Assembly (NCBI GenBank): GCA_029244805.1 | Contig: JAQWQH010000101.1 | Coordinates: forward strand, 1 to 49,353 | DNA: 49,353 bases | Source of the DNA: Flavobacteriales bacterium | GTDB taxonomy: Bacteria > Bacteroidota > Bacteroidia > Flavobacteriales_D > Parvicellaceae | Direction of reading: 5' to 3' | In this document: piece after piece, positions 7,351-33,044 of the stretch | Layout of the letters: each line of letters starts with the position of its first letter | Numbering within the stretch: the first letter of the stretch is position 1 | Position numbers and translations under genes: made by a program | The notes under the pieces: generated by a model | Seen by the model: only the letters and a program-made list of their open reading frames with translations | Told to the model about the DNA's origin: nothing | Database searches by the model: none

Positions 7351-9369
7351 CTATTCTGCTGCACCTTCATCAGAACCAGCTGGCTTGTAATCAAAACTCA
7401 ATACTCTAAATTGAGTACGCCTGTTTCTTTGATGAGCTGCCTCTTGTTCCTCTTTAGTCGTCATTTTCTTAATCACATCGCATTCAAGACCAACCGCTCT
7501 TGGTTGAACCTTACCATAACCTTTAGCATCCATTCTATCAGCAGGAATGCCTTTTGAAACTAAGTAATCAACGCAAGACTGCGCTCTTGCTTGCGACAAT
7601 CTCTGGTTATAAGCTGCTCCACCACGACAATCAGTGTGTGCCTGAAGTTCCACAATAATGGAAGGGTTATCCATTAATGTTTGGTATAAATCATTCAATG
7701 AATCCTTTGCGTTTGTTTTATCATTTACCAATAACTCAGATTTATCGTATGCATATTGCACCTCAGGAAAATCAATTACAGTCTCCACAGTTGCCGGTTG
7801 AATAAAAATTTCTTCAATAAAGTTGACTCCATGATCATATCCCATTGTTGATAAACTTGTTTTTGCTACCAGATATTCATCCTTACTTGCGTCAAAATTA
7901 TAATTAGTCTCCTTTTTTATAAATCTCTTGCCATTCTCTTCATCAAATTTAAAAGCACCTTCTTCGTTTGTGGTTTTAGAAACTTGCGAGCCATCAGTAC
8001 CAACCAATGTAATTGTAACACCAGGTATTGGATCTCCTGTTTCCTTATTTTTAACATACACCTCTAAACTAAATTGAATCTCAGGCAGGTTGAAACTGTA
8101 TAAATCATCTTTACCTTTTCCGCCATCTCTATTTGAAGTGAAAAACCCTCTGGTTTCTGTACCTCTTTCAAAAATAATCCCATAATCATGTTCAGCGGAG
8201 TTAATTGGATATTTCAAGTTTTCTACATTCTCCCATTTTTTCTCAGCAGTTTTTTCAGCTCTAAAAATATCCAATCCACCCATACCATGATGACCTGTGG
8301 AAGAGAAGAACAAGGTCCCATCTGTGCCTAAATGTGGAAACATTTCATCTCCTACAGTGTTAATTGGAGTTCCTACATTAATCGGTGCTCCCCACGATTT
8401 CTCTCTTTTATTGTATTCTATGTACCACAAATCCTTTCCTCCTTGACCACCAGGTAAATCAGCAGCAAAAATTAATAAATTACCTGTTTTGTTTAAAGTT
8501 GGATGTCCACATGAAAGAGAATCTGCACCTTCTGGTTTGAGAACTATCATAGTTGCAGCTTTCCAATTACTACCTTGTTTTTCCGCAAAAAAGATATCAC
8601 ATCCGATATTCTCTTTTTTTTCTCTAGGACAACGTGTGAAATATATCTGAGACCCTTTAGAGTTTAATACAGCTCCTCCTTCGTTATCCCCTGTATTAAC
8701 TGTTTTTGGCAACAATGTGGGCTCTCCCCATTTCCCTTTATTATCTCTTGTAGAGATCCAAAGATCCATGTAACTCTCTCCTGTTCTCAAATCTATCTCA
8801 TCTCCCGTTGAACCTTCTCTAGAGGAAGAGAAAAGCAATTGGGTATGTTTCTTATCTCCCCAGGCTGGAGCGTAATCATAGTGGTCCGTGTTCAATTGAA
8901 TTTCAGCCATTACAACATGTCTGGTTGGATTGTCTTTCCATTCCCTGGCCTTTCTGCAAGATTCCAATCCGGATTCAGCCACAACATCACCGGGCCTTAC
9001 CTCTAAAAACTCTTCATATTGAACTTGAGCCTCCTTATATTCCCCTTGCTCCTTCAAAACTTCAGCTAAATATAGTAAAACAATAGGATTCGTTCTGTCA
9101 TATTTGAGCTTTATAGCTCTATTGTAGTAGGTTTGCGCTTGTGCAGGTTCAATTAAGTTTCGATAACACTCGCCTATTTGAAAATTAATCAAGGCTTTTT
9201 TTGCTGGTTTAGCTTTCGCTTCAGCTTTTTTATAGAGTTCTTTAGCTGAAAAGTAAGATTCATTTTTAAATGCGCTATTAGCATCTTTCACGAAGTCCTT
9301 TTGCGAAAAAGAAGAGCTTGAAACCACACAAAAAGCTGTAATACAAGCAATTAATCTAAGAATATTCAT
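7351..9369 (-). CDS. OmpA-family protein with N-terminal TPR, PD40/TolB-like beta-propeller repeats and C-terminal OmpA domain
   Basis: Signal peptide, then TPR-like helices. Repeated PD40-type blocks follow (FSSSREGSTG, LIFAADLPGGQGGKDLWY, LFFSSTGHHGMGGLDIF, FFTSNRDGGKGKDDLY). The C-terminal OmpA signature is NQRLSQARAQSCVDYLVSKGI...GYG. Confidence 0.85.
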   Translation of the reverse strand: MNILRLIACITAFCVVSSSSFSQKDFVKDANSAFKNESYFSAKELYKKAEAKAKPAKKALINFQIGECYRNLIEPAQAQTYYNRAIKLKYDRTNPIVLLYLAEVLKEQGEYKEAQVQYEEFLEVRPGDVVAESGLESCRKAREWKDNPTRHVVMAEIQLNTDHYDYAPAWGDKKHTQLLFSSSREGSTGDEIDLRTGESYMDLWISTRDNKGKWGEPTLLPKTVNTGDNEGGAVLNSKGSQIYFTRCPREKKENIGCDIFFAEKQGSNWKAATMIVLKPEGADSLSCGHPTLNKTGNLLIFAADLPGGQGGKDLWYIEYNKREKSWGAPINVGTPINTVGDEMFPHLGTDGTLFFSSTGHHGMGGLDIFRAEKTAEKKWENVENLKYPINSAEHDYGIIFERGTETRGFFTSNRDGGKGKDDLYSFNLPEIQFSLEVYVKNKETGDPIPGVTITLVGTDGSQVSKTTNEEGAFKFDEENGKRFIKKETNYNFDASKDEYLVAKTSLSTMGYDHGVNFIEEIFIQPATVETVIDFPEVQYAYDKSELLVNDKTNAKDSLNDLYQTLMDNPSIIVELQAHTDCRGGAAYNQRLSQARAQSCVDYLVSKGIPADRMDAKGYGKVQPRAVGLECDVIKKMTTKEEQEAAHQRNRRTQFRVLSFDYKPAGSDEGAAE

Positions 9370-16626: not shown

Positions 16627-17010
16627 GTGAAATCTACTTTACTCATCTTAACCATCTTTATTTTTACCGCAGTTGTTTCTGGCTGCAGAAAACACACCGC
16701 AGGAACTGGAGGAAAAGCGCAAATTACTGTAAAAATAATAAACGGTAACGTAAATATTCCAAATGCAGATGTTCACGTTATGTACAATGCAACATCCTTT
16801 CCGGGAACAACGGCAGTCTATGGAAACACAGTTGCAGCTGACAATACAGGGGATGCTGTATTTGAGGACCTAAAAAGAGGTAATTATTATTTCTACTGTT
16901 CTTTTCTTGCGGACAGCATTCTAAAAGAAGCGGGCGCATCCGTCAACATAGCCAGTAAGTTTGGCGAACAGCACATTGTTATTGATTTTAACGAAGAGGA
17001 TCCATTTTAA
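16627..17010 (+). CDS. small lipoprotein with a carboxypeptidase-regulatory-like (Ig/prealbumin-like) fold
   Basis: GTG start. Signal peptide ending in VVSGC (lipobox-like). The beta-rich body (ITVKIINGN...DNTGDAVFEDLKRGNYYFYC) resembles CarboxypepD_reg-type domains. Confidence 0.55.
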   Translation: MKSTLLILTIFIFTAVVSGCRKHTAGTGGKAQITVKIINGNVNIPNADVHVMYNATSFPGTTAVYGNTVAADNTGDAVFEDLKRGNYYFYCSFLADSILKEAGASVNIASKFGEQHIVIDFNEEDPF

Positions 17011-17093: not shown

Positions 17094-18026
17094 TTAAGCA
17101 TTCACCTCTAAAAGACCATTTGTCTTTCTGACACCTTCAGCACTTTCCATTAATTTTGCTTTTTCAGAATCATTCAACTCTATTTCAACGATCTCCTCAA
17201 TACCATTAGCTCCTAATACACAAGGAACACCAATTGAGATATCGTTTAACCCAAATTCTCCTTCTAATAAAGCAGAACAAGGAAACATTTTTTTCTGATC
17301 ACAACCAATTGCTTGAACCATAGCAGATACCGCAGCTCCAGGAGCATACCACGCACTTGTACCTAGCAAACCTGTCAATGTAGCACCTCCCACTTTTGTA
17401 TCTTCAACTACTTGCGTCATTCTTTCCTCAGATAAGAACTCAGAAACAGGAACACTGTTCCTAACAGCTTTTTCAATCAAAGGCAACATTCCTTTGTCGC
17501 TATGTCCACCTATCACCATTCCGTTAACATCAGAAGCTGGGCAACCCAATGCCTCACTTAACCTATATTTGAAGCGCGCGCTATCTAAAGCTCCACCCAT
17601 TCCAATTATTCTATTCTTAGGTAAATTAGTAGATTTATGCACTAAGTATGCCATAGTATCCATTGGATTACTTACAACAATAATAATTACATTGGGAGAA
17701 TGTTCTATTAAACTGGAGGATACAGACCTAACAATACCTGCGTTGATACCTATTAGCTCTTCTCTAGTCATACCTGGTTTTCTAGGGATACCACTCGTTA
17801 TAACCGCAACATCACTACCTGCAGTTTTTGAATAGTCACTCGTACTTCCACTAATTTTTGTATCAAATCCATTTAAGGAGGCTGTTTGCATGAGATCCAT
17901 TGCCTTACCTTCTGCATAACCTTCTTTAATATCGACCAATACTACCTCGGATGCAAAATCTTTAATTGCAATATATTCAGCACAACTTGCGCCAACTGCT
18001 CCTGCTCCTACAACTGTTACTTTCAT
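17094..18026 (-). CDS. mdh: malate dehydrogenase (LDH-like family)
   Basis: The ORF-track start at 18074 is a TTG that overlaps a promoter-like box. The ATG at 18026 gives MKVTVVGAGAVGAS (Rossmann) and about 310 aa. Catalytic region GGHSD. Confidence 0.9.
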   Translation of the reverse strand: MKVTVVGAGAVGASCAEYIAIKDFASEVVLVDIKEGYAEGKAMDLMQTASLNGFDTKISGSTSDYSKTAGSDVAVITSGIPRKPGMTREELIGINAGIVRSVSSSLIEHSPNVIIIVVSNPMDTMAYLVHKSTNLPKNRIIGMGGALDSARFKYRLSEALGCPASDVNGMVIGGHSDKGMLPLIEKAVRNSVPVSEFLSEERMTQVVEDTKVGGATLTGLLGTSAWYAPGAAVSAMVQAIGCDQKKMFPCSALLEGEFGLNDISIGVPCVLGANGIEEIVEIELNDSEKAKLMESAEGVRKTNGLLEVNA

Positions 18027-18071
18027 ATTTAATCTATTTTGTTTTTTTAGTTCACCACCTATATTCGGCTT

Positions 18072-18079
18072 CAAAACTA
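18072..18079 (-). promoter_or_regulatory. candidate -7 box (TAGTTTTG on the - strand) upstream of mdh
   Basis: The + strand reads caaaacta, 46 nt from the ATG at 18026. Confidence 0.5.
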
Positions 18080-18207
18080 ATAAAAGTAAACCGGTTTAAC
18101 CATTGTTTTTCTGGTTTTCTATATTATTATTGTGTATCCCATTTTTTATTCAGCAAACAATTATTTAACATTTTCATAGCCAAATAAAAAAACTAATATG
18201 CCAAATG

Positions 18208-18232
18208 GCAACCATGCATTAACAAAATCGTC
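18208..18232 (+). promoter_or_regulatory. candidate ECF-type promoter (GCAAC-N16-CGTC) upstream of the ECF sigma gene
   Basis: gGCAACcatgcattaacaaaatCGTCataag. An AAC-containing -35 and a CGT-containing -10 with a 16-nt spacer are ECF hallmarks. The motif ends 16 nt before the ATG at 18249. The same bipartite motif recurs at 20528-20552. Confidence 0.4.
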
Positions 18233-18248
18233 ATAAGTAAGAATTAAG

Positions 18249-18812
18249 ATGAAACTAGAGCAGAGAGAGCTGGAAAGAATTGTAGATGGTTGTAAAGCCA
18301 AACGCAGATCTTCCCAACAAAAGATATATGAATTGCTTTACAGTAAAATGCTCCCTGTCTGTTGCAGATACGCGCGCAGCACAGACGAAGCAAAAGACAT
18401 GTTGCAGGATGGTTTCATCAAGGTCTTTGAAAAAATTGAACAATACAATACCGGGGGATCCTTCGAAGGTTGGGTAAGACGAATTATCGTGAACACAGCT
18501 ATTGATGGATATCGTAAAAACAAAAAAGAAGTTTTTATTGACGATGAATCTCGAATAAAGGATGAAAAAGATTGGGAAGATATTGAAAATGAATCTGAAT
18601 ATTCAGAACTTTCAATAAATGATATTGTCGAAGCTATGCAAAACTTATCTCCAGGCTATCAAACAGTGTTCAATTTATATGTTATGGAAGGTTATACTCA
18701 CCAAGAGATAGCTGACGAATTAGAAATTAATATCGGAACTTCTAAATCCAACTTAGCAAAAGCAAAGGCAAACATGAAGATAATGCTTACTGAGAAATTA
18801 AATAGATTATGA
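18249..18812 (+). CDS. RNA polymerase ECF-type sigma-70 family factor
   Basis: 187 aa. Region 2 (DEAKDMLQDGFIKVFEKIEQY...WVRRIIVNTAIDGYRK) and region 4 HTH (GYTHQEIADELEINIGTSKSNLAKAK). Confidence 0.9.
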   Translation: MKLEQRELERIVDGCKAKRRSSQQKIYELLYSKMLPVCCRYARSTDEAKDMLQDGFIKVFEKIEQYNTGGSFEGWVRRIIVNTAIDGYRKNKKEVFIDDESRIKDEKDWEDIENESEYSELSINDIVEAMQNLSPGYQTVFNLYVMEGYTHQEIADELEINIGTSKSNLAKAKANMKIMLTEKLNRL

Positions 18813-20122
18813 AAAATAATCAATTAGACAATTTTGAATCACTTATTAAATCCTCTTTGGATAAGCAAAGGGCAGTTTATGATTCGAATGATTGGAATAA
18901 ATTAAACAACAAGTTAGACCAAGTGAATAGACCATTTTATTCTTCTCCTTGGTTTATAGCTGCTTCAGTAGCTGCTGTTTTAGTATTGGCATATTTTGTA
19001 TCCACGCTTAAAACTGTTACTGAACCAACTCCGCTTGTAATAACTCCACAAGAAAATCAAATATCCGAGCGGAAAAAAGAGTCTGAAGCTGTCGCATTGA
19101 CTGAGAAAGAGCACAACGAAATAAAAGAAGTTTTTATTAAAGCTGACAAAGAAATTAGCAATAAAGAAAAAACAAACCGTAAAGAAGAAATCAAAAAGAA
19201 TACTAGTGAAACCAAAGCATCAGATACAAAAGAGGTTAAATCCCAAAATTTAGAAGACTCCACCATTTCTGAAGAGAACGGATTTATACCTCTTGATGAT
19301 GAATCTTCAGAAGAAGGTAATATTATTCCTGAGGAAATTGTAATCCTTGAAAAAGCCGATTTTCATATGAGCTCCTTTGATTGCTGCGAAGGAACAACTA
19401 TTGATTTTGTAGCCGAAAAACAAAACAATGTTGAATACTTGTGGAGTTTTGACGATGGGAATTACAGTAAAAAAGAAAACCCATCACATACATTTAATAA
19501 AGCTGGAAGTTATAAAGTAAGTTTAATTGTAAGATCTAAAAAAGATAATTCCGTTATGAACAGATCTAATGATCAACTATTAACTGTTTACCCTAAACCA
19601 ATTATTGAATTTGAATGGGAAATGAATGAAGAAAATGGAATTCCTTACACTTCCCTTATTAACTTGACGGAAAAAGCTGTTAATTGGACTTGGGATTTTG
19701 GTGATGGCACAATTTCAAATGAGAAAGGCCCAATTCACACCTATAGAAATAAGGGCCAGTATCTTGTAACATTAACTGCAACAAATAACGAACAATGTAA
19801 TAATACGATGAACAAGGAAATCATAGTCAATGAAGACTATAACCTCTTGGCACCTAACTCTTTTACTCCAAACGGAGATGGCCTAAATGATTATTTCTTA
19901 CCTGCTGCTCTAAATCGTTTAAATGGAAGTTTCACAATGACAATTTACAGTCAAACTGAAGGTTTGATATACGACACTAAAAACATTGACCAACCATGGG
20001 ATGGATCGAATCAAAAGTTAGGCACAAAATGCAAAGAAGGCAGTTACGTTTGGGTTGTAAAACTTACAAACGAAAAGGGTCAAACCGAACAATACAAAGG
20101 AGTAATACTATTGTTGAAATAA
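18809..20122 (+). CDS. single-pass membrane protein with two PKD domains and a T9SS type-B (gliding-motility-associated) C-terminal sorting domain; putative anti-sigma factor
   Basis: ATGA overlap with the sigma gene. About 46 hydrophilic residues precede a TM (residues 47-65, PWFIAASVAAVLVLAYFVS). A K/E-rich linker (~85-150) follows. There are two PKD-like units (WSFDDGN...SHTFNKAGSYKVSL; WDFGDGT...HTYRNKGQYLVTL). The C-terminus reads NLLAPNSFTPNGDGLNDYF...YKGVILLLK. Confidence 0.75.
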   Translation: MKNNQLDNFESLIKSSLDKQRAVYDSNDWNKLNNKLDQVNRPFYSSPWFIAASVAAVLVLAYFVSTLKTVTEPTPLVITPQENQISERKKESEAVALTEKEHNEIKEVFIKADKEISNKEKTNRKEEIKKNTSETKASDTKEVKSQNLEDSTISEENGFIPLDDESSEEGNIIPEEIVILEKADFHMSSFDCCEGTTIDFVAEKQNNVEYLWSFDDGNYSKKENPSHTFNKAGSYKVSLIVRSKKDNSVMNRSNDQLLTVYPKPIIEFEWEMNEENGIPYTSLINLTEKAVNWTWDFGDGTISNEKGPIHTYRNKGQYLVTLTATNNEQCNNTMNKEIIVNEDYNLLAPNSFTPNGDGLNDYFLPAALNRLNGSFTMTIYSQTEGLIYDTKNIDQPWDGSNQKLGTKCKEGSYVWVVKLTNEKGQTEQYKGVILLLK

Positions 20123-20527
20123 AAAATAATAACCTATTATGTAATGCCGTTGGAATGACTTTCACTCAAATCTTGTTCAACCACATTGCACGAAGCAAAC
20201 TGTTAATATTTCAACAGGAAAGAAAGTAAAAACGAAAAATAACTAACTTTCTAAATTCTGATATCTACTATCCCTGAAAAGTCTGTTTTACGAAATTTAT
20301 TTATCTTATTTCAGAAGATTTCTTTGCTTATATTAGATTGTATTTGGAGGCAATTTCTCTAAGTAATGGTTGGATAGACAACCAACTACAAAGTCGGAAA
20401 ACTAAAAAAGCTGTGCTAATGGACTGCAATAAATTGGATTACTCTTTGTTCGATAAATAAGCCACTAATATTGTAACCCTAAACTAAATATTAAAGTATG
20501 AATCTAGAATATTTCAGATGATTAGCT

Positions 20528-20552
20528 GCAACAATCTTGAATTTATATCGTC
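20528..20552 (+). promoter_or_regulatory. candidate ECF-type promoter (GCAAC-N16-CGTC) upstream of the T9SS cargo operon
   Basis: tGCAACaatcttgaatttatatCGTCtgata, ending 65 nt upstream of the ATG at 20618. Both half-sites and the spacing are identical to the site at 18208-18232. Confidence 0.4.
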
Positions 20553-20617
20553 TGATAATCGTTAATATATATTAACCTGAACATCAAGAGTTAATAAAAA
20601 TAAAATATCTTTACCTA

Positions 20618-20962
20618 ATGAACATACTGTATCCAACAATTTTACTCTTACTCTCTTTACCTGTAAAGGATTTATCAGCTCAAACGTCTGAAAGTAAATT
20701 TGTTCAATTCATGATGACAAATGTCGATTCAAGAGAAAAAGTATTGGAAATAGATGAATTTATGCGTAGTCAGCAAGGAGTTGAAATTTCTAGAGCCGAC
20801 CTGGTTAGTAAAAAATATTTATGCATTTATGAATCTACAAGTGGTTTAGACAGAGTCAGATTTGAAACATGGATGGAGGATTTAGGGGTTGAAATCAAAT
20901 GTTTCAGAGAAGGTAAATTCGGTACAGACAAAGTAATTGATCAAAAAATGGACTGCGAATAG
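20618..20962 (+). CDS. small secreted protein of unknown function
   Basis: 114 aa with a signal peptide (MNILYPTILLLLSLPVKDLSAQ). It is the first gene of the tightly packed operon. I recognise no family. Confidence 0.5.
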   Translation: MNILYPTILLLLSLPVKDLSAQTSESKFVQFMMTNVDSREKVLEIDEFMRSQQGVEISRADLVSKKYLCIYESTSGLDRVRFETWMEDLGVEIKCFREGKFGTDKVIDQKMDCE

Positions 20963-20964
20963 TT

Positions 20965-22767
20965 ATGAAATACTACATACATACACTACTTATATTCGTT
21001 GTCTTAGCTATTACTAATGACAGCTATTCCCAATGGGGAGATTGTGACAATTCAATTGAAGCATGCACCAATCCCTCATTTGCTGTAACCCCAAATGGTT
21101 TTGGCGCTATCGAAGAATTTCAATCAGGAACCATTACAAATCCTAGTTCCAATCCAAATGCAACCCCTGGAAACAGCGGATGTTTGCTTTCTGGAGAATT
21201 AAATAGTACATGGCTTTTAATTACTGTAACGTCCCCGGGAACACTAGAGTTTAGCATGGGCGATTTAGCTTCACCTGGCTGTTTTGACTGGATTATGTGG
21301 CCATACGATGCTAATACATGCGACGATATATTTAATAATGTGCTTCCTCCAGTTGCGTGTAATTGGAATGGGGCCTGCAGTGGCCTAACCGGAATGGCAA
21401 ATATTTTACCTATTGGTGCCAGTCAAGGAGATTTTGAAAATGAACTTAATGTTAATGCAGGGGATCAATTTATGATTTGTTTGTCGAACTACGGAGGAGC
21501 AAACACCAACATTCCTCTTAATTTCTTTGGAACAGCAGGAACAACTTGTGGTGGAGCAATTGATGCAACAATATGTGAAGGTGATACGGCGACAATATCA
21601 GCGCTCGACGGAGTAGCATATGTTTGGGAAATAGCAACATTTGGATTTATTACAACCAATGCTTCTGGAGATACGGCTTATGTAAATCCATCTACAACAA
21701 CAAGCTACCCTGTAGTCATAGAATTTGCTGACGGAACCTTCGCAAACGACACTGCTGTGGTTACTGTTATTCCTGCAATCAATGCTTCAGCAACAGTTAT
21801 AGAAGAGCAATGTTTTGGGGACGATACTGCAAGCATCACTATTGACACACCTGGCGGTACAGCGCCATTTGCTTTTACTTTAACTGGCCCTACCTCAAGT
21901 AATAACACCAATGGAATTTTCTCAAATTTACCCTCAGGAAATTATACAGTTGACATTACAGATGATACAGGTTGCTCAGATCAAATAATATTAACGGTCA
22001 ATCCAGGTCCATTGTGCTGTGACATAACTATATCAACTACTGGTGATTCCGTTAATTGTCAAGCGGACTGCTCAGGAATGGTTGTAGTTGATACAGCAAA
22101 CTCTCATCCTCCAGTCAACATCCAATGGTTTGATGAAAACGACAATCCAATTATTGGAGCTTTCAATGATACGCTATTTTCAGCGTGTACTGGGACGTAC
22201 TATGTTGAAGTTTCCGATATTGTTTGTATGAAAAGGGATACAGCAACTATTGGCATAAGCCTGCAGTTACCCACTGCAGTTTCCTCTAATGACACTACTA
22301 TTTCTGTTGAACAAGAAGTACCTCTTTGGTCATCAGGAGGATCCAGCTATATTTGGACTCCAGACACTTACCTAGACTGTTCAGATTGCGAAAACCCTAT
22401 TTCTACACCCGGAAATGATATCACCTACATTATTACAGTCACAGACTCTTTGGGCTGCAGTGTTGAAGACACAATAGAGGTAACTGTTATTTACTATCCA
22501 CTTTTTATTCCAAACGGATTCTCTCCAAATAACGATAATGAAAATGACATTCTTTTTGTCAGAGGTGCTGGTCTTGAATCTATTCAAATGCATATATTTG
22601 ATAAATGGGGTAATCTGGTTTTTGAGACATTAGACATTGAACAAGGTTGGGATGGAACCTTTAATGGGAAACCTGTAAATACTGGAGTTTATGTATATAG
22701 AATGGATGCTACATTGAAAAATGGAGAAACGCTAATGGAATCTGGGAACATAACATTGTTTAGATAG
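20965..22767 (+). CDS. T9SS type-B sorting-domain cargo protein with a Cys-rich N-terminal module and SprB-type repeats
   Basis: Signal peptide. SprB-repeat-like unit (CFGDDTASITIDTPGGTAPFAFTLTGP...FSNLPSGNYTVDITDDTGC) plus a second degenerate unit. The C-terminus PLFIPNGFSPNNDNENDILFVRG...GNITLFR is a variant type-B CTD. Confidence 0.8.
   Translation: MKYYIHTLLIFVVLAITNDSYSQWGDCDNSIEACTNPSFAVTPNGFGAIEEFQSGTITNPSSNPNATPGNSGCLLSGELNSTWLLITVTSPGTLEFSMGDLASPGCFDWIMWPYDANTCDDIFNNVLPPVACNWNGACSGLTGMANILPIGASQGDFENELNVNAGDQFMICLSNYGGANTNIPLNFFGTAGTTCGGAIDATICEGDTATISALDGVAYVWEIATFGFITTNASGDTAYVNPSTTTSYPVVIEFADGTFANDTAVVTVIPAINASATVIEEQCFGDDTASITIDTPGGTAPFAFTLTGPTSSNNTNGIFSNLPSGNYTVDITDDTGCSDQIILTVNPGPLCCDITISTTGDSVNCQADCSGMVVVDTANSHPPVNIQWFDENDNPIIGAFNDTLFSACTGTYYVEVSDIVCMKRDTATIGISLQLPTAVSSNDTTISVEQEVPLWSSGGSSYIWTPDTYLDCSDCENPISTPGNDITYIITVTDSLGCSVEDTIEVTVIYYPLFIPNGFSPNNDNENDILFVRGAGLESIQMHIFDKWGNLVFETLDIEQGWDGTFNGKPVNTGVYVYRMDATLKNGETLMESGNITLFR
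22267..22764 (+). repeat. C-terminal 166-codon module shared with 26606-27103
   Basis: Gapless protein alignment of residues 435-600 with residues 784-949 of the 949-aa protein. 108/166 are identical by hand count. Confidence 0.8.
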
Positions 22768-22769
22768 AT

Positions 22770-23837
22770 ATGAGAATATACCTACTTTCAATAACGATAT
22801 TGGCAATATTTACAGGGCATGCGCAGGACACTGAGTTTTCTCAGTTCAACAGTACGCCGTTGATTCAGAACCCTGCAAACACAGGCATGGGCAGAGGATA
22901 CAATAGAGCGAATTTATTGTACCACTCGCAGCATACTACAACTGGAAATGTTTATTCCACTATGTACGCATCTGCTGATGCCCCTATATTTTCCCATAAA
23001 ATGAAAAGAGCAAGTGGGTTATTTGCAACTGGATTACATTTCTACAACAACACTGAAGGTGATGCCAAACTGAGCACACTTAATGTAGGGCTCACTATTG
23101 CTGGTCATGTTGACTTAGATTATTACAATAAAGGAAGTGTGGGAATTCAAGGAACCTATAATCAACAATCATACAATACAAACGCAATTCAATGGGACAG
23201 CCAATATAATGGAACTTCCTATGACCCTACTTTACCCTCTAATGAAAATTTTTCCGGGAATAGTAATGTGTTTTTTAATATGGGAGTTGGCCTTTTATGG
23301 AAACATTTTTCTAGAGAAGAAAATCTAACCGGTATTGACAAAGGTAGTTTTCAAATTGGATACAGTTTAGTTAATATCACTAGACCATCTTTATCTTTGA
23401 TGAACAATTCAGACAAACAATACTTTAAGCACAATGCGCATTTTAAAAGTCTTTTTGCAATTGGCGAAAAGCACATAGGAGTTGCTCCTTCAGGAATGTT
23501 TTTAATGCAGGGTCCTCATATTGAATATTCAATAGGTAGTGCATTTCTATTTTATCTCAAGTCGGACACGAAATATACTGGATTCATTAAGGAAGCATAT
23601 GTTGGTATGACTATGCATTATAGAAATACAGATGCAATTATACCTGGAATAGTAATTAAGGTTTCTGATATTATTATAGGTATGTCTTATGATTATAGTA
23701 TTGGGAAATTGCAAAACTTTAATGGAGGAATGGGTGGATTTGAATTTTCTCTACAGTTTAATGACACCTATGGAACATTATTCAATCAAGGGAATATGCA
23801 CGTAACAAATGGTGCACAAAACTCCAGAAAATTATAG
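22770..23837 (+). CDS. PorP/SprF-family T9SS membrane protein
   Basis: Signal peptide, then the family-typical N-terminus QDTEFSQFNSTPLIQNPANTGM. About 355 aa with beta-barrel-like alternation. It lies 2 nt downstream of a type-B CTD cargo gene, as in the sprB-sprF arrangement. Confidence 0.8.
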   Translation: MRIYLLSITILAIFTGHAQDTEFSQFNSTPLIQNPANTGMGRGYNRANLLYHSQHTTTGNVYSTMYASADAPIFSHKMKRASGLFATGLHFYNNTEGDAKLSTLNVGLTIAGHVDLDYYNKGSVGIQGTYNQQSYNTNAIQWDSQYNGTSYDPTLPSNENFSGNSNVFFNMGVGLLWKHFSREENLTGIDKGSFQIGYSLVNITRPSLSLMNNSDKQYFKHNAHFKSLFAIGEKHIGVAPSGMFLMQGPHIEYSIGSAFLFYLKSDTKYTGFIKEAYVGMTMHYRNTDAIIPGIVIKVSDIIIGMSYDYSIGKLQNFNGGMGGFEFSLQFNDTYGTLFNQGNMHVTNGAQNSRKL

Positions 23838-23840
23838 TTA

Positions 23841-24260
23841 ATGAAATTAAATATATTACTCTTCGCCTTGGTGATTGCTTACAATTCTTTTGGTCAAAAT
23901 ATAAGCCCAAAGATAATTGAGTCTTTAGGAGCTGAAAAAGCGCATGATTTATTTTCAAATAATCTGGAAAAATATAATCATTTAATGGACTTCATTGATC
24001 ACTCGTGGTATGTTCAAGATGTTTCTTTTAAAGACTTATCAGATTTAAAGGATTTCAGAACTGTTCCCTTTAAGGGCACTGGCAGCAATTTATTTGATGA
24101 TGGGCAAAATTTCCGAATAGAAAATTTCAATCCACTTCTTTACGAAATTAAAATTAAAGATAAATATCCCACAGTTTATAAACTAGGAGAAACTGGAAAA
24201 ATAATTGTTTTCTATTCACGAGAATATTTCATTGAAAAAGCTAAGGAAACTAAATTATGA
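23841..24260 (+). CDS. small secreted protein of unknown function
   Basis: 139 aa with a signal peptide (MKLNILLFALVIAYNSFGQ). Its stop overlaps the next gene's start (ATGA at 24257-24260). Confidence 0.5.
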   Translation: MKLNILLFALVIAYNSFGQNISPKIIESLGAEKAHDLFSNNLEKYNHLMDFIDHSWYVQDVSFKDLSDLKDFRTVPFKGTGSNLFDDGQNFRIENFNPLLYEIKIKDKYPTVYKLGETGKIIVFYSREYFIEKAKETKL

Positions 24261-27106
24261 GACACGCACTTATAATTCTGTTATTAATATTTCCATGGCA
24301 ATTTAAGGCACAAGATTTTTCCATTACTGATGGAGACATTGCAACTTGTTTAGGAACTTTATTTGACTCTGGAGGGACTGGTGGTACTGGATATTCAAAT
24401 AATGAAAGCTATACGGTTACAATTTGCCCAGACAATGCCAATGATGTGATTACGCTAGATTTCATCAATTTTGCCTTAGACAATACCAACACAGCTATTC
24501 CTCCAGCAAATAATATTGATAATATAATTATCTATGATGGTGATAATACGGGTGCAACAACATTAGGAACATACACAGGCAATCAACTACAAGGAACAAT
24601 TGTCACATGTACATCACTTAACACTACTGGATGTATCACCCTTGTATTTACTTCAAATGATGTTGGAACGGGAGTATTTGCTGCCTCAATTACTTGCGCT
24701 ACGCCTTGTCAAAGACCATTTGCACAAGCAATATCAAATCCAGATACAATTGCTAAAATTTGCATAGGTGAATCTGTTAGCTTTGACGGGTCTTCATCGT
24801 ATGCACAAACTGGATTTAACATTGTGGATTACCATTGGGATTTTGATGACGGCACAATTGATAGTTTAAGCGGCGCAAATACAAGCTACACATTTAATGA
24901 CCCAGGTGTGTTTAATGTACAACTGCGCGTAATTGATGATAATGGATGTATCAACTCTAATTTAACTGATTTAAGTATTTGGGTTGCTCCTCCACCCGTA
25001 TTTAACCCAATAGAATATGACACGAGTATGTGCATAGGAGAAACCGTTACAATGACAGCTCACCCTGAGCAATATTCACAAACATGGACCGCTGTTCCAA
25101 ATGGAAACTTGGGAGGACCTCAATATGTGCCGGATCAAGTAGGACAATGCTTTACGACTACTTTAGATTTCACAGCATTCACTCCTGGCCAAACCCTTGG
25201 AAACATTAATGATTTTCTAGATGTATGTGTAAATTTTGAGCATTCATTTATGGGAGATTTGGTAATTTCATTAACCTGCCCTACAGGGCAAAATGTGGTT
25301 CTGCATCAACAAGGTGGTGGTGGAACAAATCTGGGTGACCCAGACCAGATGGATGGCGCTCAATTTCCTGGTGTAGGATGGGACTATTGTTGGAGTCCAG
25401 CCGCCTCTAATGGGACATGGGTAGACAACTCTACAACTAATACAGTTGTAAACAGTAGTGGATCGACATCTTTAATTCCTGGAACTTATGAAAGTATCAA
25501 TCCAATGAACGCGCTAGTTGGATGTGACCTCAACGGAACATGGGAAATCGAATTTTGCGATTTATGGGGAGCTGATGACGGTTTCGTTTTTAGTTGGGGT
25601 ATTAATTTCGATCCAAGTCTATTTCCTCCTTTAACTTCTTTTACCCCATCAATTGGAACCGATCAAGATTCTTCCAGTTGGAATGGCCCCAATATAATAA
25701 ATACATCTAGCGATGGAAACGAAATTATAGTTGCTCATACTGCTCCGGGGAGCTATGATTATACATTTTCTATTACGAGTGACCATGGATGTGTTTCAGA
25801 TACAACTATTACTCTCGTTGTAGAGCCAGGTCCAGAGGTTTTTGCTGGAAATGACACAAGCGCATGTACAGGTCAACAAGTTCAATTAACGGGAGAAATA
25901 TTAAATACCCCACCCCCTTCTCCTCCTTGTGTATTTACAATAGACATGGTAGACACCTTTGGAGATGGTTGGAATGGAGCATCTATTGATGTAATCATAA
26001 ACGGAGTATTAACAAATTACGGAATGCTCAATGGATCAAATGCAGCTTATACGTTTACCCTTAATGACGGAGATACTTGGAACATAGTATTTAATTCCGG
26101 AACATTTGACAATGAAATTATTTACACTTTTACGGACTGTAATGGAAATCAGATATTCACGGATGGCCCCAATCCACTGGTTGGTGCTGCTTTTACTTCT
26201 ACATATGGTAACCCGGTGAGCTATACGTATGGTTGGGACCCTTCAACAGGTTTAACGGATGCCACTATTATTGACCCTATATCATCTATTAGCGGACAAA
26301 CCACATACGTTTTGAGTATTTACCCAACTGGACATCCTCTTTGCGTGACGACAGATACAGTTACAGTTAATATAAACGATCCTTCTGCGGGACAAGACTC
26401 AACTGCAAAAGTTTGCCAATCTGGCACTGGACTATACCTTTATGATTATCTAGGTGACTCTTTAGATATTGGAGGAACTTGGTACAATGGTTCAACAATC
26501 ATCACAGATATTGTAGACCCATCTAATTTGGTTGCTGACACATTCCAATATATCATCGGAAACCAAGGCTGCATGGATACTGCAACGGTTATAATATATG
26601 CTTCTATTCCTGTTCCTATCTCATCAAACGACACATCCATAACGGTAGATCAACAAATTCCACTTTGGACTTCGGGAGGAGAATCTTATATATGGACTCC
26701 TAGTATTTATTTGGACAGCACATTTTCCAGCTCCGTAATATCTACTCCTGGAGAAGATATTACTTATTATATAGAGGTTTTTGATTCTCTTGGTTGTAAG
26801 GCTATTGACTCAATAAGTATCACCGTAGAGTACAACCCTTTATTCATTCCAAATGGATTTTCACCTAATAATGACAACAACAATGATGTGTTGTATGTTC
26901 GAGGGGGAGGAGTTTCACTAATTCATTTTATGGTTTTTGACAAATGGGGAAATTTGGTCTTTGAATCATACGATATGGATAACGGATGGGATGGAACCTA
27001 TAAAGGGAAGCATCTGAATACGGGCGTTTATGTATATCGGATGGATGCAACCTTAAAAAATGGCCAGCCCATTTTTCAAAGTGGAAATGTCACATTGTTT
27101 AGATAG
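24257..27106 (+). CDS. large multidomain T9SS type-B cargo protein (CUB-like, PKD, proprotein-convertase P-domain-like, GDGW module, variant type-B CTD)
   Basis: - Signal peptide.
- Residues 19-150 are CUB-like (C..G.L.DSGG...Y.NN..Y...ICP....I.L.F..F.L......D.I.IYDG......LG.Y.G.....V.S....L.LVF.S....G.GF.A.I.C).
- PKD (HWDFDDGT...VQLRVIDDNGC).
- P-domain-like (FEHSFMGDLVISLTCPTGQNVVLH...LNGTWEIEFCDLWGADDGFVFSWGINF).
- CTD PLFIPNGFSPNNDNNNDVLYVRG...GNVTLFR. Confidence 0.8.
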   Translation: MRHALIILLLIFPWQFKAQDFSITDGDIATCLGTLFDSGGTGGTGYSNNESYTVTICPDNANDVITLDFINFALDNTNTAIPPANNIDNIIIYDGDNTGATTLGTYTGNQLQGTIVTCTSLNTTGCITLVFTSNDVGTGVFAASITCATPCQRPFAQAISNPDTIAKICIGESVSFDGSSSYAQTGFNIVDYHWDFDDGTIDSLSGANTSYTFNDPGVFNVQLRVIDDNGCINSNLTDLSIWVAPPPVFNPIEYDTSMCIGETVTMTAHPEQYSQTWTAVPNGNLGGPQYVPDQVGQCFTTTLDFTAFTPGQTLGNINDFLDVCVNFEHSFMGDLVISLTCPTGQNVVLHQQGGGGTNLGDPDQMDGAQFPGVGWDYCWSPAASNGTWVDNSTTNTVVNSSGSTSLIPGTYESINPMNALVGCDLNGTWEIEFCDLWGADDGFVFSWGINFDPSLFPPLTSFTPSIGTDQDSSSWNGPNIINTSSDGNEIIVAHTAPGSYDYTFSITSDHGCVSDTTITLVVEPGPEVFAGNDTSACTGQQVQLTGEILNTPPPSPPCVFTIDMVDTFGDGWNGASIDVIINGVLTNYGMLNGSNAAYTFTLNDGDTWNIVFNSGTFDNEIIYTFTDCNGNQIFTDGPNPLVGAAFTSTYGNPVSYTYGWDPSTGLTDATIIDPISSISGQTTYVLSIYPTGHPLCVTTDTVTVNINDPSAGQDSTAKVCQSGTGLYLYDYLGDSLDIGGTWYNGSTIITDIVDPSNLVADTFQYIIGNQGCMDTATVIIYASIPVPISSNDTSITVDQQIPLWTSGGESYIWTPSIYLDSTFSSSVISTPGEDITYYIEVFDSLGCKAIDSISITVEYNPLFIPNGFSPNNDNNNDVLYVRGGGVSLIHFMVFDKWGNLVFESYDMDNGWDGTYKGKHLNTGVYVYRMDATLKNGQPIFQSGNVTLFR
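24311..26605 (+). repeat. about 765-codon N-terminal block paralogous to 27406-29703
   Basis: Residues 19-783 of the 949-aa protein align nearly collinearly with ORF-track residues 38-803 of the next protein. Identity is roughly three-quarters by eye over the first ~130 residues, and I saw only small indels. DNA similarity is clearly visible. Confidence 0.8.
26606..27103 (+). repeat. C-terminal 166-codon module shared with 22267-22764
   Basis: See the 22267-22764 entry. Both copies end in identical acattgtttagatag. Confidence 0.8.
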
Positions 27107-27348
27107 AGTTCTTAAAGTAGAACACCATCCACACCAGTTATTTTGTGCTACTTTTGTCAACCGGCAATCAAATCATTAAGTGTATTATTGGAATCCTATG
27201 TAATTTCAAAAAACAAACTAAACACTCTATATCAACAAATTAGAATAAATTAACTTAATTTCAACCCTTAAATTAAGATTTATGGTAAGTAATATTGAAG
27301 CAACTCTTGCAAAATTTAGTGGTTTGTTTTAAATCAATTACGAGAAAG

Positions 27349-30300
27349 ATGAAACATATATCTATCCTATTCATATTATTTATTCTGCCAGCTTATTTAT
27401 TGGCTCAAGATTTTTCCATTGCTGACGGAAACATTTCAACCTGCTCAGGAACACTTTTTGACACTGGTGGGCAAGGCGGAAATGGATATGGAAACAACGA
27501 ATCTTTCACCATAACTATTTGCCCTGATAATGCTAATGATATTATTACATTGGACTTTTTAAATTTTGCTCTTGACAATACAAACACGGCAAATCCCGGA
27601 AACAACATTGACAACATAACTATTTATGATGGTGACAACATTACTGCTTCAACCCTAGGAACATATAGTAATGGCCAACTTCAAGGAACTGTAGTTACTT
27701 GCACATCACTTAACACTTCTGGATGTTTGACTCTTGTATTCACTTCAAATGATATTGGAACAGGAACTTTTGCAGCTGCAATAACTTGTTCTACCCCATG
27801 CCAAAGACCCGTGGCTCTGGCGTCAACATTTCCTGATACAATTGCACGAATATGTAAAGGAGAATCAGTAAGCTTTGATGGATCAGCCTCTTTTGCCCAA
27901 GGTACATTTAACATTGTTGATTACCATTGGGATTTTGACGACGGTACCATTGATAGCACTAGTGGAGCCAATGCAAACTATGTTTTTAATGATGAAGGGG
28001 CTTACGTTGTTCAATTATATGTAATTGATGACAATGGTTGTATAAATTCTAACTTAACAAGCTTAAATGTGTGGGTTGCCCCGGATCCAATATTTAACCC
28101 TATGGAGTTTGACACTACTATTTGCCTTGGAGAAACTGCAGTAATGACAGCTCATCCAGAGCAATACGCTCAGACTTGGGCAGCGGTTCCTGATGGTAAT
28201 TTAGGTGGACCTCAATATGTCCCCGATCAAGTTGGACAGTGCTTTTCTACCGGGCTTACATTTGAAGCTTTTAATCCAGGACAAACCTTAACTAACATAA
28301 ATGACTTATTGGATATTTGTATAAACTTTGAGCATTCATTCATGGGAGACTTAGTTATATCGCTATACTGTCCCTCAGGACAGAGTGTAATTTTACATCA
28401 ACAAAACGGTGGAGGAACCAACCTAGGAGATCCAAATCAAATTGATGACCCTAATTTAGCCGGAACGGGATGGGATTATTGTTGGAGCCCAACTGCAACT
28501 AATGGCACCTGGGAAGATAATGCTACAACAAATACCGTTGTAAATAGCAGTAGTTCAAATTCATTAATAGCCGGAACTTATGAAAGTTTAAACCCAATGA
28601 ATTCATTAGTTGGATGTGACTTGAACGGAACTTGGGAAATTGAATTTTGCGACTTATGGGGTGCAGATGATGGATTTGTATTTAGTTGGGGAATTAATTT
28701 AGACCCCAGTTTATTTCCCCCTCTAACATCATTCACTCCTGAAATCGGAATTCAGTCCGATTCATCATTTTGGTCAGGACCTAATATTACCAATACATCC
28801 GGTGATGGAAATGAAATCACAATTACGCCATTAGCAATTGGTTCCTATGATTATACTTACACTGTAATAGATGAGCACGGATGCTCTAATGACACCTCAA
28901 TTACTTTGGTGATAGAACCAACCCCAGTAGCTGATGCAGGACCTGACTCTACTGTTTGCAATGGGGCAACCATTCAATTGCAAGGAGGAGTAGCAAATAC
29001 GCCTCCACCCCTCCCCGCATGCGACTTTACGATAGACCTCGAAGACACATTTGGAGATGGATGGAATGGAGCATCCATAGATTTAATTATAAACGGTGTT
29101 TCAACAAACTATGGAATGACGGCTGGAACAAATGCATCATATACATTTACTCTGAATGATGGAGATTCTTGGGAAGTCATATTTAATTCTGGAACATATG
29201 ACAGTGAAGTAATTTATACCTTTACAGACTGTAACGGGAATCAAATATTCTCAGATGGTCCAAACCCTACAATTGGATCTGCTTTTACATCTATTTATGG
29301 GAATACAACATCTTACACGTACTCGTGGAGTCCCACAACTGGTTTAACAAACCCAAACATTGCTGAACCGGAAGCGACAATTAGCGGACAAATGACTTAT
29401 ACATTAACTGTATTTCCTACTGGACATCCATTGTGTTTTTCTGTTGACCAAGTTACAATTAATGTTAGCAACTCAAATTCGGCTGGTACTGATGCAGCTG
29501 CAGTATATTGCTCAACGAACCCTGTTGTAGACATGTTTACTTTATTAGGAGGAAACCCTGATATTGGCGGTACTTGGTTAGATGGGAACTTACTAGCCGC
29601 ATCTAATATATATAATCCAGCTTCAAACATTACCGACATTTATGCCTATGTTGTTGGAACTTCAGGTTGTTCTGACACTGCATTCATTGATATTTCTGTG
29701 GGAGCACCATTTGGATTGAGCGTTCCTAACGACACTATTATCTGTGAAAACGGCCAGTTAAATTTATTTGTTAACGCAACTGGTGGTTTTGGACCTCCCT
29801 ACGATGAAACATGGTCTCAAGGACTTACAGGGAATGGACCTTTTACTTTTACCCCAGCTATTTCAGCATGTTATGATGTGTTCGTAACGGATGCAAATGG
29901 CTGTTCATCACCTATTGAAACAATTTGTGTTAATATAAACCCTCCAATTATAGTAACCGCTAGCGGAATAGACTCTATTTGTTCTGGTGACCAGAATCTA
30001 TTGGAAAGTTCTGCTATAGGTGGAAATAGTGGACCTTACAATTATTCTTGGAGTACCCAAGGGACAGCATTAGGAACGACAGAAGATATAACAGTGTCTC
30101 CGATAGTACAAACTGAATACTGTGTTACCATAAGTGACAATTGCGAAACAACTCCTGTAACAGAATGCGTTACCATAAATATGTATCCTCAACCCATTCC
30201 TTTGTTTACGAGTGACATTAATGACGGCTGCTATCCAATTGATGTTACTTTCACCAATAATACCGACATTGGATCTATAGGTTCTGTTTCTTGGGATTTT

Positions 30301-30990
30301 GGAAATGGAAACACATCTTCTCAAACGACAGCAGTACAATCCACATTCAACCAACCAATTTGCTACGATGTTTCACTTACAGTTACTTCACCGCAGGGAT
30401 GCTCTCAATCTGAAATAAATACTGCAATGATTTGTCCATTTGATTATCCAACCGCAGATTTCCAATTGAGTCCAAATCCAACAAACATATTTGATACAGA
30501 TATTTATTTCACCAATATGTCTTCTGAAGATGTAAATAATTGGCAATGGGATTTTGGAAGTGAAACATCCCCAACTTCCTCAATGACTGAAAACCCTACA
30601 GCTATATTTCCTCCGAATGAACCAGAGACGTATCCAATATCTTTAATTGTAACAAATGCTGATGGATGCACAGACACGACTCAAAACACGCTAATCGTAA
30701 ACAGTATTTTTACTTTGTACATACCAAATGCTTTCACTCCTGATGGAGATGGTTTAAATGATGAATTTTATGTTCAAGGAGCTGCTGTATCTATGGATAA
30801 TTTCTCTCTAATGATATTTAACAGATGGGGAGAATTAATTTTTGAAACAACTGATTTAACTGCAAAGTGGGACGGTAATATTAAAGACAAACCTTTACCA
30901 ATAGGTAGCTATGCATGGAAAGTTAACGCAAAAGATATTTACACTGGTCAGCAGCATGAATATTACGGACATGTATTAATTATCCGATAA
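27349..30990 (+). CDS. large multidomain T9SS type-B cargo protein, paralog of 24257-27106 with extra Ig-like repeats, two more PKD domains and a canonical type-B CTD
   Basis: The ORF-track start at 27295 is a TTG. The ATG at 27349 gives MKHISILFILFILPAYLLAQ (signal peptide). It has the same CUB-like, PKD, P-domain-like and GDGW order. Next come GGxxPYxxxWS repeats (GGFGPPYDETWS, GGNSGPYNYSWS) and PKD units (SWDFGNGN, WQWDFGSE). The CTD reads LYIPNAFTPDGDGLNDEFYVQG...GHVLIIR. Confidence 0.8.
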   Translation: MKHISILFILFILPAYLLAQDFSIADGNISTCSGTLFDTGGQGGNGYGNNESFTITICPDNANDIITLDFLNFALDNTNTANPGNNIDNITIYDGDNITASTLGTYSNGQLQGTVVTCTSLNTSGCLTLVFTSNDIGTGTFAAAITCSTPCQRPVALASTFPDTIARICKGESVSFDGSASFAQGTFNIVDYHWDFDDGTIDSTSGANANYVFNDEGAYVVQLYVIDDNGCINSNLTSLNVWVAPDPIFNPMEFDTTICLGETAVMTAHPEQYAQTWAAVPDGNLGGPQYVPDQVGQCFSTGLTFEAFNPGQTLTNINDLLDICINFEHSFMGDLVISLYCPSGQSVILHQQNGGGTNLGDPNQIDDPNLAGTGWDYCWSPTATNGTWEDNATTNTVVNSSSSNSLIAGTYESLNPMNSLVGCDLNGTWEIEFCDLWGADDGFVFSWGINLDPSLFPPLTSFTPEIGIQSDSSFWSGPNITNTSGDGNEITITPLAIGSYDYTYTVIDEHGCSNDTSITLVIEPTPVADAGPDSTVCNGATIQLQGGVANTPPPLPACDFTIDLEDTFGDGWNGASIDLIINGVSTNYGMTAGTNASYTFTLNDGDSWEVIFNSGTYDSEVIYTFTDCNGNQIFSDGPNPTIGSAFTSIYGNTTSYTYSWSPTTGLTNPNIAEPEATISGQMTYTLTVFPTGHPLCFSVDQVTINVSNSNSAGTDAAAVYCSTNPVVDMFTLLGGNPDIGGTWLDGNLLAASNIYNPASNITDIYAYVVGTSGCSDTAFIDISVGAPFGLSVPNDTIICENGQLNLFVNATGGFGPPYDETWSQGLTGNGPFTFTPAISACYDVFVTDANGCSSPIETICVNINPPIIVTASGIDSICSGDQNLLESSAIGGNSGPYNYSWSTQGTALGTTEDITVSPIVQTEYCVTISDNCETTPVTECVTINMYPQPIPLFTSDINDGCYPIDVTFTNNTDIGSIGSVSWDFGNGNTSSQTTAVQSTFNQPICYDVSLTVTSPQGCSQSEINTAMICPFDYPTADFQLSPNPTNIFDTDIYFTNMSSEDVNNWQWDFGSETSPTSSMTENPTAIFPPNEPETYPISLIVTNADGCTDTTQNTLIVNSIFTLYIPNAFTPDGDGLNDEFYVQGAAVSMDNFSLMIFNRWGELIFETTDLTAKWDGNIKDKPLPIGSYAWKVNAKDIYTGQQHEYYGHVLIIR
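27406..29703 (+). repeat. N-terminal block paralogous to 24311-26605
   Basis: See the 24311-26605 entry. Confidence 0.8.

Positions 30991-31055: not shown

Positions 31056-33044
<1,989 letters not shown>

Follow-up and report, generated by a model that had tools for sequence, protein, structure and literature searches.

The classical promoter of an autoregulated extracytoplasmic function (ECF) sigma factor carries AAC at −35 and CGT at −10, and the −35 motifs of canonical ECF sigma/anti-sigma pairs are GGAAC and TGAAAC. Among the named groups of the ECF classification, ECF03 is found mainly in Bacteroidetes. In Porphyromonas gingivalis, the sigma factor SigP (PGN_0274) controls type IX secretion system (T9SS) genes, including porP; it is activated by binding the response regulator PorX, no cognate anti-sigma factor has been shown, and its proposed motif is C(T)AAA(G/C/T)A(T)A(C)T(A/G)A (PMC4800418). 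PorA, a protein bearing a C-terminal domain (CTD), signals to PorXY-SigP in the same species (PMC7712824, PMC12152298). In Flavobacterium psychrophilum, ECF-type promoters with a CGT box (motif SM6), mapped by their transcription start sites, precede gldN, porU, a PG0189 homolog and one ECF sigma/anti-sigma pair, with the responsible sigma factor left unassigned, and the remFG-sprCDBF operon has sigma-54 and SM5 promoters, not ECF promoters (PMC9723704). These are the known examples that we found; in the papers searched, we met no description of the regulation of T9SS type B cargo and of the PorP/SprF adaptors dedicated to them. Here we describe a candidate ECF promoter, GCAAC-N16-CGTC, upstream of a five-gene T9SS cargo/SprF operon in 49,353 nt of DNA from a Flavobacteriales bacterium (Parvicellaceae; assembly GCA_029244805.1, contig JAQWQH010000101.1, positions 1-49,353, forward strand), called the window throughout. 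The same motif precedes a nearby ECF sigma gene and its putative anti-sigma partner, and sequence comparisons make it probable that the operon-side site is a target promoter of this adjacent sigma factor, which would thereby drive the operon directly.

The motif at the sigma gene and at the cargo operon

Searched on both strands of the whole window, GCAAC-N16-CGTC has exactly two matches, 18208-18232 and 20528-20552, where 0.04 would be expected; none of 100 dinucleotide shuffles gave two or more. The two copies stand in intergenic sequence on the + strand, shortly 5′ of + strand genes (Table 1). The original prediction had described a site ending 65 nt upstream of the ATG at which the operon begins, with half-sites and a 16-nt spacer length identical to those in front of the sigma gene; the sequence confirms these positions and the identity, with no third match in the window. 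The looser pattern AAC-N16-CGTC returns the same two sites against 1.75 expected, a count that is not significant by itself. Duplication of the sigma promoter region as the source of the second site was ruled out by eye, only nine core bases being common to the two.

The sigma factor scores 94.7 bits against TIGR02937 (cut-off 42.9) and consists of regions 2 and 4 only, the composition of an ECF sigma factor. No subfamily or equivalog-level NCBIfam model attains its cut-off, the broad TIGR02937 superfamily model being the sole one that does; TIGR02985 (Sig70_bacteroi1) gives 83 bits under a cut-off of 126.4, and sigma_PG0214, the model of another P. gingivalis sigma factor, 77 bits under a cut-off of 130. 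Orthologs were collected from 52 genome loci found by means of the sigma protein and from metagenome contigs with closer homologs (loci are referred to by L numbers), and they occupy the same malate dehydrogenase (Mdh)-sigma-partner context. From 97% down to 48% protein identity, the orthologous sigma genes are preceded by GGCAACC-N15/16-CGT(C/T), with N counted from GCAAC. In an alignment of 19 of these upstream regions, GCAAC never varies and neither does the T of CGT, and the spacer shows no constraint. Every site has CGT, but its C and G do not count as invariant in the alignment, because the loci with N15 stand one column off register. The sigma-side copy is a conserved phylogenetic footprint and is predicted to be an ECF promoter of the autoregulatory type, from which transcription would start at about 18238-18241 with a leader of roughly 10 nt. 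About 75 nt before this motif, in the divergent region common to the Mdh gene, TATTATTG (18125-18132) is preceded at 19 nt by a TTG and may be a housekeeping promoter for basal expression of the sigma/anti-sigma pair.

Because the GCAAC-N16-CGTC pattern was derived from the two sites themselves, a test independent of them was needed, and a two-block weight matrix was trained solely on the sigma-upstream sites of distant orthologs, with the window's clade excluded. In the window, this matrix places the sigma-side site first (21.3 bits) and the operon-side site fifth among 98,646 positions (12.2 bits), the latter being the top intergenic match in 49 kb besides the sigma gene's own site. The matches of ranks 2 to 4 all lack a CGT −10; those of ranks 2 and 3, on the minus strand at 28079 and 24987, are covered by + strand cargo genes of the open reading frame (ORF) list, and that of rank 4 was checked and lies antisense within an ORF. 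The matches at 28079 and 24987 were rejected as promoters, as were the high matches at 8709 and 39936, which were checked, are antisense within ORFs and have no CGT −10. A shuffled version of the 495-nt intergenic region before the operon attains 12.2 bits in 35 of 5000 trials. In related real DNA, 33 matches of at least 12 bits occur per 618,628 positions, or about 0.026 expected in the operon's intergenic region, and at 16 bits or more there are 2, or about 0.001 per region. The operon-side site fits the core only, reading TGCAACA where the family consensus is GGCAACC. This copy is real and moderately unlikely to have arisen by chance, and taken on its own it is only moderately convincing.

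Second copies of the motif are found in other, independent clades, all on the coding strand. In L006 and L007, the copy follows the anti-sigma gene and stands 28-63 nt before the ATG of a gene for a 2,600-aa protein ending in CHU_C (16.6-19.2 bits); in L013-L018, it again follows the anti-sigma gene, 28-63 nt before the ATG of a PorP/SprF gene (PF11751, E = 1e-59 to 1e-60; 19.2-21.4 bits); in L010 and L012, a weaker copy (12.4-12.8 bits) is located between SecDF and Mdh, thus upstream of the sigma gene, before the gene of an FG-GAP protein with a Por_Secre_tail (type A) sorting domain. The intergenic regions that carry these copies are unrelated in sequence except for the motif. At least four different gene contexts, all T9SS-linked, carry the promoter motif of this sigma family, and this is the strongest evidence that the sigma factor drives the operon in the window.

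Several side observations concern these loci. The copies in L010 (6184-6207) and L012 (3410-3434), both Crocinitomicaceae-like loci, precede a 747-aa FG-GAP/Por_Secre_tail cargo gene; the counterpart of this position in the window is an ORF with no motif in front of it (Table 1). In the sigma-upstream regions of L013-L018 (for example L014 501-555 and L017 9913-9967), a second internal (G)CAACCTTTT lies within the spacer and a conserved CGTA about 10 nt past CGTC; the SprF-gene copy in the same loci likewise has AACCTTTT as its −35 context. ECF promoters may thus stand here in tandem or overlap. A recurrent match of 13-20 bits, GGCAAC(C/G)ATGATGAAAGATCT, in L014, L017 and L018 is internal to a conserved gene (about 600 aa); we took it as a coding coincidence.

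A real ECF-type promoter at the operon might also be read by another ECF sigma factor of the genome with overlapping AAC/CGT specificity, the adjacency of the present one being incidental, and this we regard as quite unlikely. AAC at −35 and CGT at −10 are generic among ECF promoters, overlapping ECF regulons have been discussed for motif SM6 (PMC9723704), and the window site lacks the family-specific flanks, the G before GCAAC and the C after it. Furthermore, the orthologous operon in L055, L056 and L062 follows a large cargo gene and not the sigma/anti-sigma pair. However, the core common to the sites includes the less usual GC before AAC together with the exact 15/16-nt spacing of the family, and in four clades the second copy stands immediately beside this sigma/anti-sigma pair.

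Conservation of the operon upstream region and other routes of transcription

Orthologs of the operon, recognized by its first gene (p114, 75-92% identity), were found in ten metagenome loci plus L070. The gene order is the same in L054-L062 and L070; L070 is without p139 and p949, its SprF gene being followed by a gap and then the 1213-aa protein. The motif occupies the same position in all of these operons and is intact in the window, L053, L054, L056 and L059; L061 has GGCAAC. In L070 it reads AGCAACC-N15-CGTT, and this site reaches 17.9 bits, second only to the sigma site in that 10.8-kb locus, despite a diverged spacer. Across 10 orthologous upstream regions the two half-sites are conserved at 0.94 and 0.92, as against 0.75-0.77 in the flanks, and two other blocks of the region are as conserved as the half-sites; we take this test as supportive, not decisive. 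Conservation of the motif before orthologous cargo operons, a check attached to the original prediction, holds for its position in every locus, but in three lineages the core is degenerate. The central suggestion of that prediction, that the adjacent ECF sigma factor may drive the operon, draws support from the footprint at the sigma gene, the site in L070 and the copies in other clades.

Other observations weigh against direct control of the operon by this sigma factor. The lineages with a degenerate core are L055 (CATC), L057/58 (CCAAT) and L060/62 (CCAAC with CATC). The entire 250-nt upstream region is 74% conserved, and conservation of the motif is poorly discriminating. At 12.2 bits against 21.3 for the autoregulatory site, the operon-side site has a stand-alone chance probability of about 0.007-0.03, and the operon's intergenic region also contains conserved, near-consensus housekeeping −7 boxes. 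The closest relatives of the sigma factor (L001-L005, L063, L067) have no second copy of the motif, even where cargo genes follow, and neither do L073-L075. Lastly, no known anti-sigma domain was found in the partner (Pfam, NCBIfam and PDB; N-terminal profile).

The housekeeping boxes deserve particular attention. TAnnTTTG is the Bacteroidota housekeeping −7 consensus, and such sigma-A boxes dominate flavobacterial promoters (PMC9723704). A regular-expression scan of 20123-20617 found no perfect TAnnTTTG box and several with one mismatch, among them those in Table 1. The first lies inside a strongly conserved block, ATATTGTAACCCTAAAC (0.94, alignment A1); the block at 20460-20490, AATAAGCCACTAATATTGTAACCCTAAAC, which contains TAATATTG, is almost invariant in the 10 orthologous p114 upstream regions (0.94) and stands above its surroundings. 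The second belongs to an A-rich leader (20581-20617, AGAGTTAATAAAAATAAAATAnCTTTAC) that is nearly invariant (0.90) and includes TAnnTTTAC 4 nt before the ATG; box and leader may represent a housekeeping promoter of the leaderless type, or an A-rich translation initiation region of the Bacteroidota kind that lacks a Shine-Dalgarno sequence. Both boxes could provide basal or alternative transcription. An E. coli-type sigma-70 promoter scan gave 5 matches against 11.5 expected from shuffles. An Rfam scan of 17900-27500 with E up to 1 returned no RNA family; the conserved upstream blocks are therefore not a known riboswitch or leader.

It is unlikely, in our view, that sigma-A drives the operon from one of these boxes (from the second, nearly leaderless) and that GCAAC-N16-CGTC is a coincidence kept by a young, little-diverged region. 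Such an account would fit the conservation of the two blocks (0.94 and 0.90), which is no lower than that of the motif, the loss of the core in three lineages that retain the operon, and a site score expected by chance at the rate given above. It fits less well with the lack of a perfect box and with the fact that only the first box has a suitably placed TTG, which is not conserved; moreover, the L070 site has shifted toward the ECF consensus while its spacer diverged, and in other clades, whose intergenic regions are unrelated, the motif recurs ahead of T9SS-linked genes far beyond chance. Housekeeping and ECF promoters can also coexist, and one does not exclude the other.

Transcription could reach the operon from upstream as well. 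No terminator-like hairpin was found on the + strand between 20123 and 20617, after the anti-sigma gene, and because of this read-through from the sigma operon may contribute. That the operon depends on the sigma factor solely in this way, through one long sigma/anti-sigma/cargo transcript begun at the sigma-side site to which the internal motif adds nothing, we judge very unlikely. In its favor, a hairpin plus T-run does stand directly behind the anti-sigma gene in relatives that carry other cassettes. However, an untranslated gap of 495 nt with several conserved blocks argues for signals of its own, and in L055, L056 and L062 the same upstream region, motif included, follows the terminator hairpin of a different upstream gene. 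From the operon-side site, sigma-dependent transcription would begin at about 20558-20562.

Table 1. Features of the window discussed in the text
Feature	Position	Strand	Description
127-aa ORF	16627-17010		unknown family, GTG start
Predicted autoregulatory ECF-type promoter of the sigma/anti-sigma pair (sigma-side site)	18207-18232	+	GGCAACC (−35), 15 more spacer bases, CGTC (−10); GCAAC 18208-18212, 16-nt spacer, CGTC 18229-18232; 16 nt to ATG 18249
ECF (group 4) sigma-70 family sigma factor	18249-18812	+	187 aa; Sigma70_r2 and Sigma70_r4_2 only
Putative membrane anti-sigma factor (partner)	18809-20122	+	437 aa; start codon overlaps sigma stop codon (ATGA)
Candidate housekeeping (sigma-A) −7 box	20466-20473	+	TAATATTG; one mismatch to TAnnTTTG; TTG 17 nt upstream, not conserved
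Operon-side site	20528-20552	+	GCAAC 20528-20532, 16-nt spacer aatcttgaatttatat 20533-20548, CGTC 20549-20552
Second −7-like box	20606-20613	+	TATCTTTA; TAnnTTTA, one mismatch, invariant in 10 orthologs; 4 nt before ATG
p114	20618-20962	+	secreted, no family (ORF list, Pfam scan)
p600, CHU_C cargo	20965-22767	+	600 aa; TIGR04131 53.6 bits (cut-off 35), Pfam CHU_C
PorP/SprF family protein	22770-23837	+	TIGR03519 128.7 (cut-off 90.55); PF11751 E = 1e-30
p139	23841-24260	+	ORF list
p949, PKD/P_proprotein/CHU_C cargo	24257-27106	+	949 aa; TIGR04131 47.9 bits (cut-off 35), Pfam CHU_C
GCAAC half-site before the paralog	27300-27324	+	GCAAC 27300-27304, N16, then GGTT; absent from top matrix matches
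p1213, paralog	27349-30990	+	1213 aa; TIGR04131 58.0 bits (cut-off 35), Pfam CHU_C; 242-nt gap before
gyrB	31056-33005		

The membrane partner, the cargo operon and the variable island

The gene of the partner is translationally coupled to the sigma gene and is always present beside it. The protein has a hydrophilic N-terminus of about 45 aa, one transmembrane (TM) helix, a linker, two PKD domains and a C-terminal CHU_C domain of the T9SS type B kind, the last two assigned by Pfam as PKD_4 and CHU_C; TIGR04131 gives 32.7 bits, slightly under its cut-off of 35. All partner genes share the N-terminal 45 aa and the TM helix; the consensus is M.NNQLD.FE...L...E.PYD.SDW..L.KKLD, in which Y24 and W29 never change. 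The periplasmic part differs between clades. A phmmer search with residues 1-70 against 1.84 billion representatives gave 30 matches, and a profile search of the N-terminus in a 5.8-billion-protein index returned short fragments only. PKD plus CHU_C was found in eight of the nine full-length representatives of the partner family that were scanned (at most 50% identity), and the partners in L073-L075 carry this combination too. From its context we infer that the partner is an anti-sigma factor. A CHU_C sorting domain is unexpected here, since the protein is predicted to stay in the inner membrane, and the literature searched yielded no report of an anti-sigma factor that carries a type B CTD.

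On this basis, a mechanism can be outlined in which the sigma factor would be made together with its single-pass membrane partner, whose short conserved cytoplasmic N-terminus would keep it inactive. A signal received by the periplasmic PKD-PKD-CHU_C part would free the sigma factor, and RNA polymerase carrying it would start at GGCAACC-N15-CGTC before its own gene, giving positive autoregulation. The same polymerase would also start at the weaker GCAAC-N16-CGTC before p114 and transcribe the operon. Binding of the sigma factor to both sites, the two transcription starts, the function of the partner and the signal are all steps that we infer.

A further idea, which we put forward tentatively and regard as rather doubtful, is that the partner is an anti-sigma factor anchored in the inner membrane whose type B domain serves as a secretion-coupled switch. 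The T9SS, or an adaptor of the PorP/SprF type, would engage, pull or cleave its CHU_C domain, whereupon the sigma factor would be released, and cargo/adaptor cassettes would be transcribed only when the secretion machinery can accept them. Such a switch would combine regulated proteolysis with a checkpoint that is for the T9SS what FlgM/sigma-28 is for flagellar export. Where CHU_C is missing from the partner of a clade, the predicted target is a PorP/SprF homolog, in keeping with a feedback loop between sigma factor and adaptor.

The five genes of the operon are separated by gaps of 2-3 nt, with one overlap of 4 nt, and the PorP/SprF gene begins 2 nt past the end of the 600-aa cargo gene. CHU_C cargo and a PorP/SprF gene stand together here, the composition of a T9SS type B cargo/adaptor operon. 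Over their first 875 aa, p949 and its paralog p1213 share 64% identity, and their C-terminal extensions differ; of these two large cargos, only p949 lies inside the operon preceded by the motif. The original prediction had noted that a GCAAC half-site before the paralog is followed at N16 by GGTT, which the sequence bears out; there is no CGT, and this half-site is not predicted to be an ECF promoter.

The wider gene order is SecDF, the 127-aa ORF, Mdh, sigma factor, partner, cargo genes and GyrB, and the stretch between the anti-sigma gene and gyrB (20123-30990) is a variable T9SS cargo island. Relatives with a 90-93% identical sigma factor (L001-L005, L063 and L067) have entirely different genes after the partner, several of the closest relatives show a hairpin plus T-run directly after the anti-sigma gene, and in L009-L012 gyrB itself follows directly. 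In L055, L056 and L062, the p114 cassette is preceded by a large cargo gene and a terminator hairpin in place of the sigma pair, and the motif travels with the cassette. Many metagenome contigs break shortly upstream of p114. Since the closest relatives differ after the partner, this part of the locus is a variable cargo island and the module a variable cassette, not a fixed unit. The proposal that sigma factor, anti-sigma factor and cargo operon form one functional module is supported by the comparative genomics in this modified form.

If direct control by the sigma factor is true, a sigma/partner pair that is widespread among marine Flavobacteriales and related Bacteroidota would control exchangeable cargo/adaptor cassettes, which occupy the variable island between the anti-sigma gene and gyrB. 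GGCAACC-N15/16-CGT(C/T) would then offer a practical handle for regulon prediction in uncultured genomes, and the CTD-bearing partner a concrete idea of how secretion capacity might feed back on cargo expression. The points of interest are the cassettes of type B cargo and SprF adaptor as targets, the family-wide motif and the CTD on the partner.

Comparison with known systems

The P. gingivalis PorY-PorX-SigP system resembles the present locus in that an ECF sigma factor is tied to T9SS genes, including porP, to whose family the SprF-like gene of the operon belongs, and in that a CTD-bearing protein takes part in signalling, PorA being the nearest idea to the CTD-bearing partner of the window. 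In contrast, the published SigP motif is unrelated to GCAAC-N16-CGTC. SigP targets are genes of the core machinery, whereas the predicted targets here are cargo and adaptor cassettes. None of the loci examined contains porX or porY.

With the window, the SM6 promoters of F. psychrophilum share a conserved CGT −10 before T9SS genes and before a sigma/anti-sigma pair, a likeness in the −10 element. The SM6 targets are components of the machinery, whereas those predicted here are type B cargo/SprF operons. Operons of the sprB-sprF type (PMC9143113, PMC12618676) likewise have a CHU_C/TIGR04131 cargo gene beside a PorP/SprF gene.

Compared with autoregulated ECF/anti-sigma pairs such as E. coli RpoE-RseA and B. 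subtilis SigW-RsiW, the locus differs in four respects. No known anti-sigma domain was recognized in the N-terminus of the partner, the periplasmic part of this protein is PKD-PKD-CHU_C with a T9SS sorting signal, the −35 element is GGCAACC and not GGAAC or TGAAAC, and genes for secretion cargo and adaptors take the place of envelope stress genes as predicted targets. Like those pairs, it has a two-domain sigma factor of regions 2 and 4; a translationally coupled, single-pass membrane partner that is predicted to be co-transcribed; AAC in the −35 and CGT in the −10 element at a distance of 15-16 nt (GCAAC to CGT); and one copy of the motif before its own operon, with further copies before putative target genes. 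Together, these features suggest that the arrangement resembles a standard autoregulated ECF sigma/anti-sigma module, set among T9SS genes, for which ECF control is already known from SigP and SM6.

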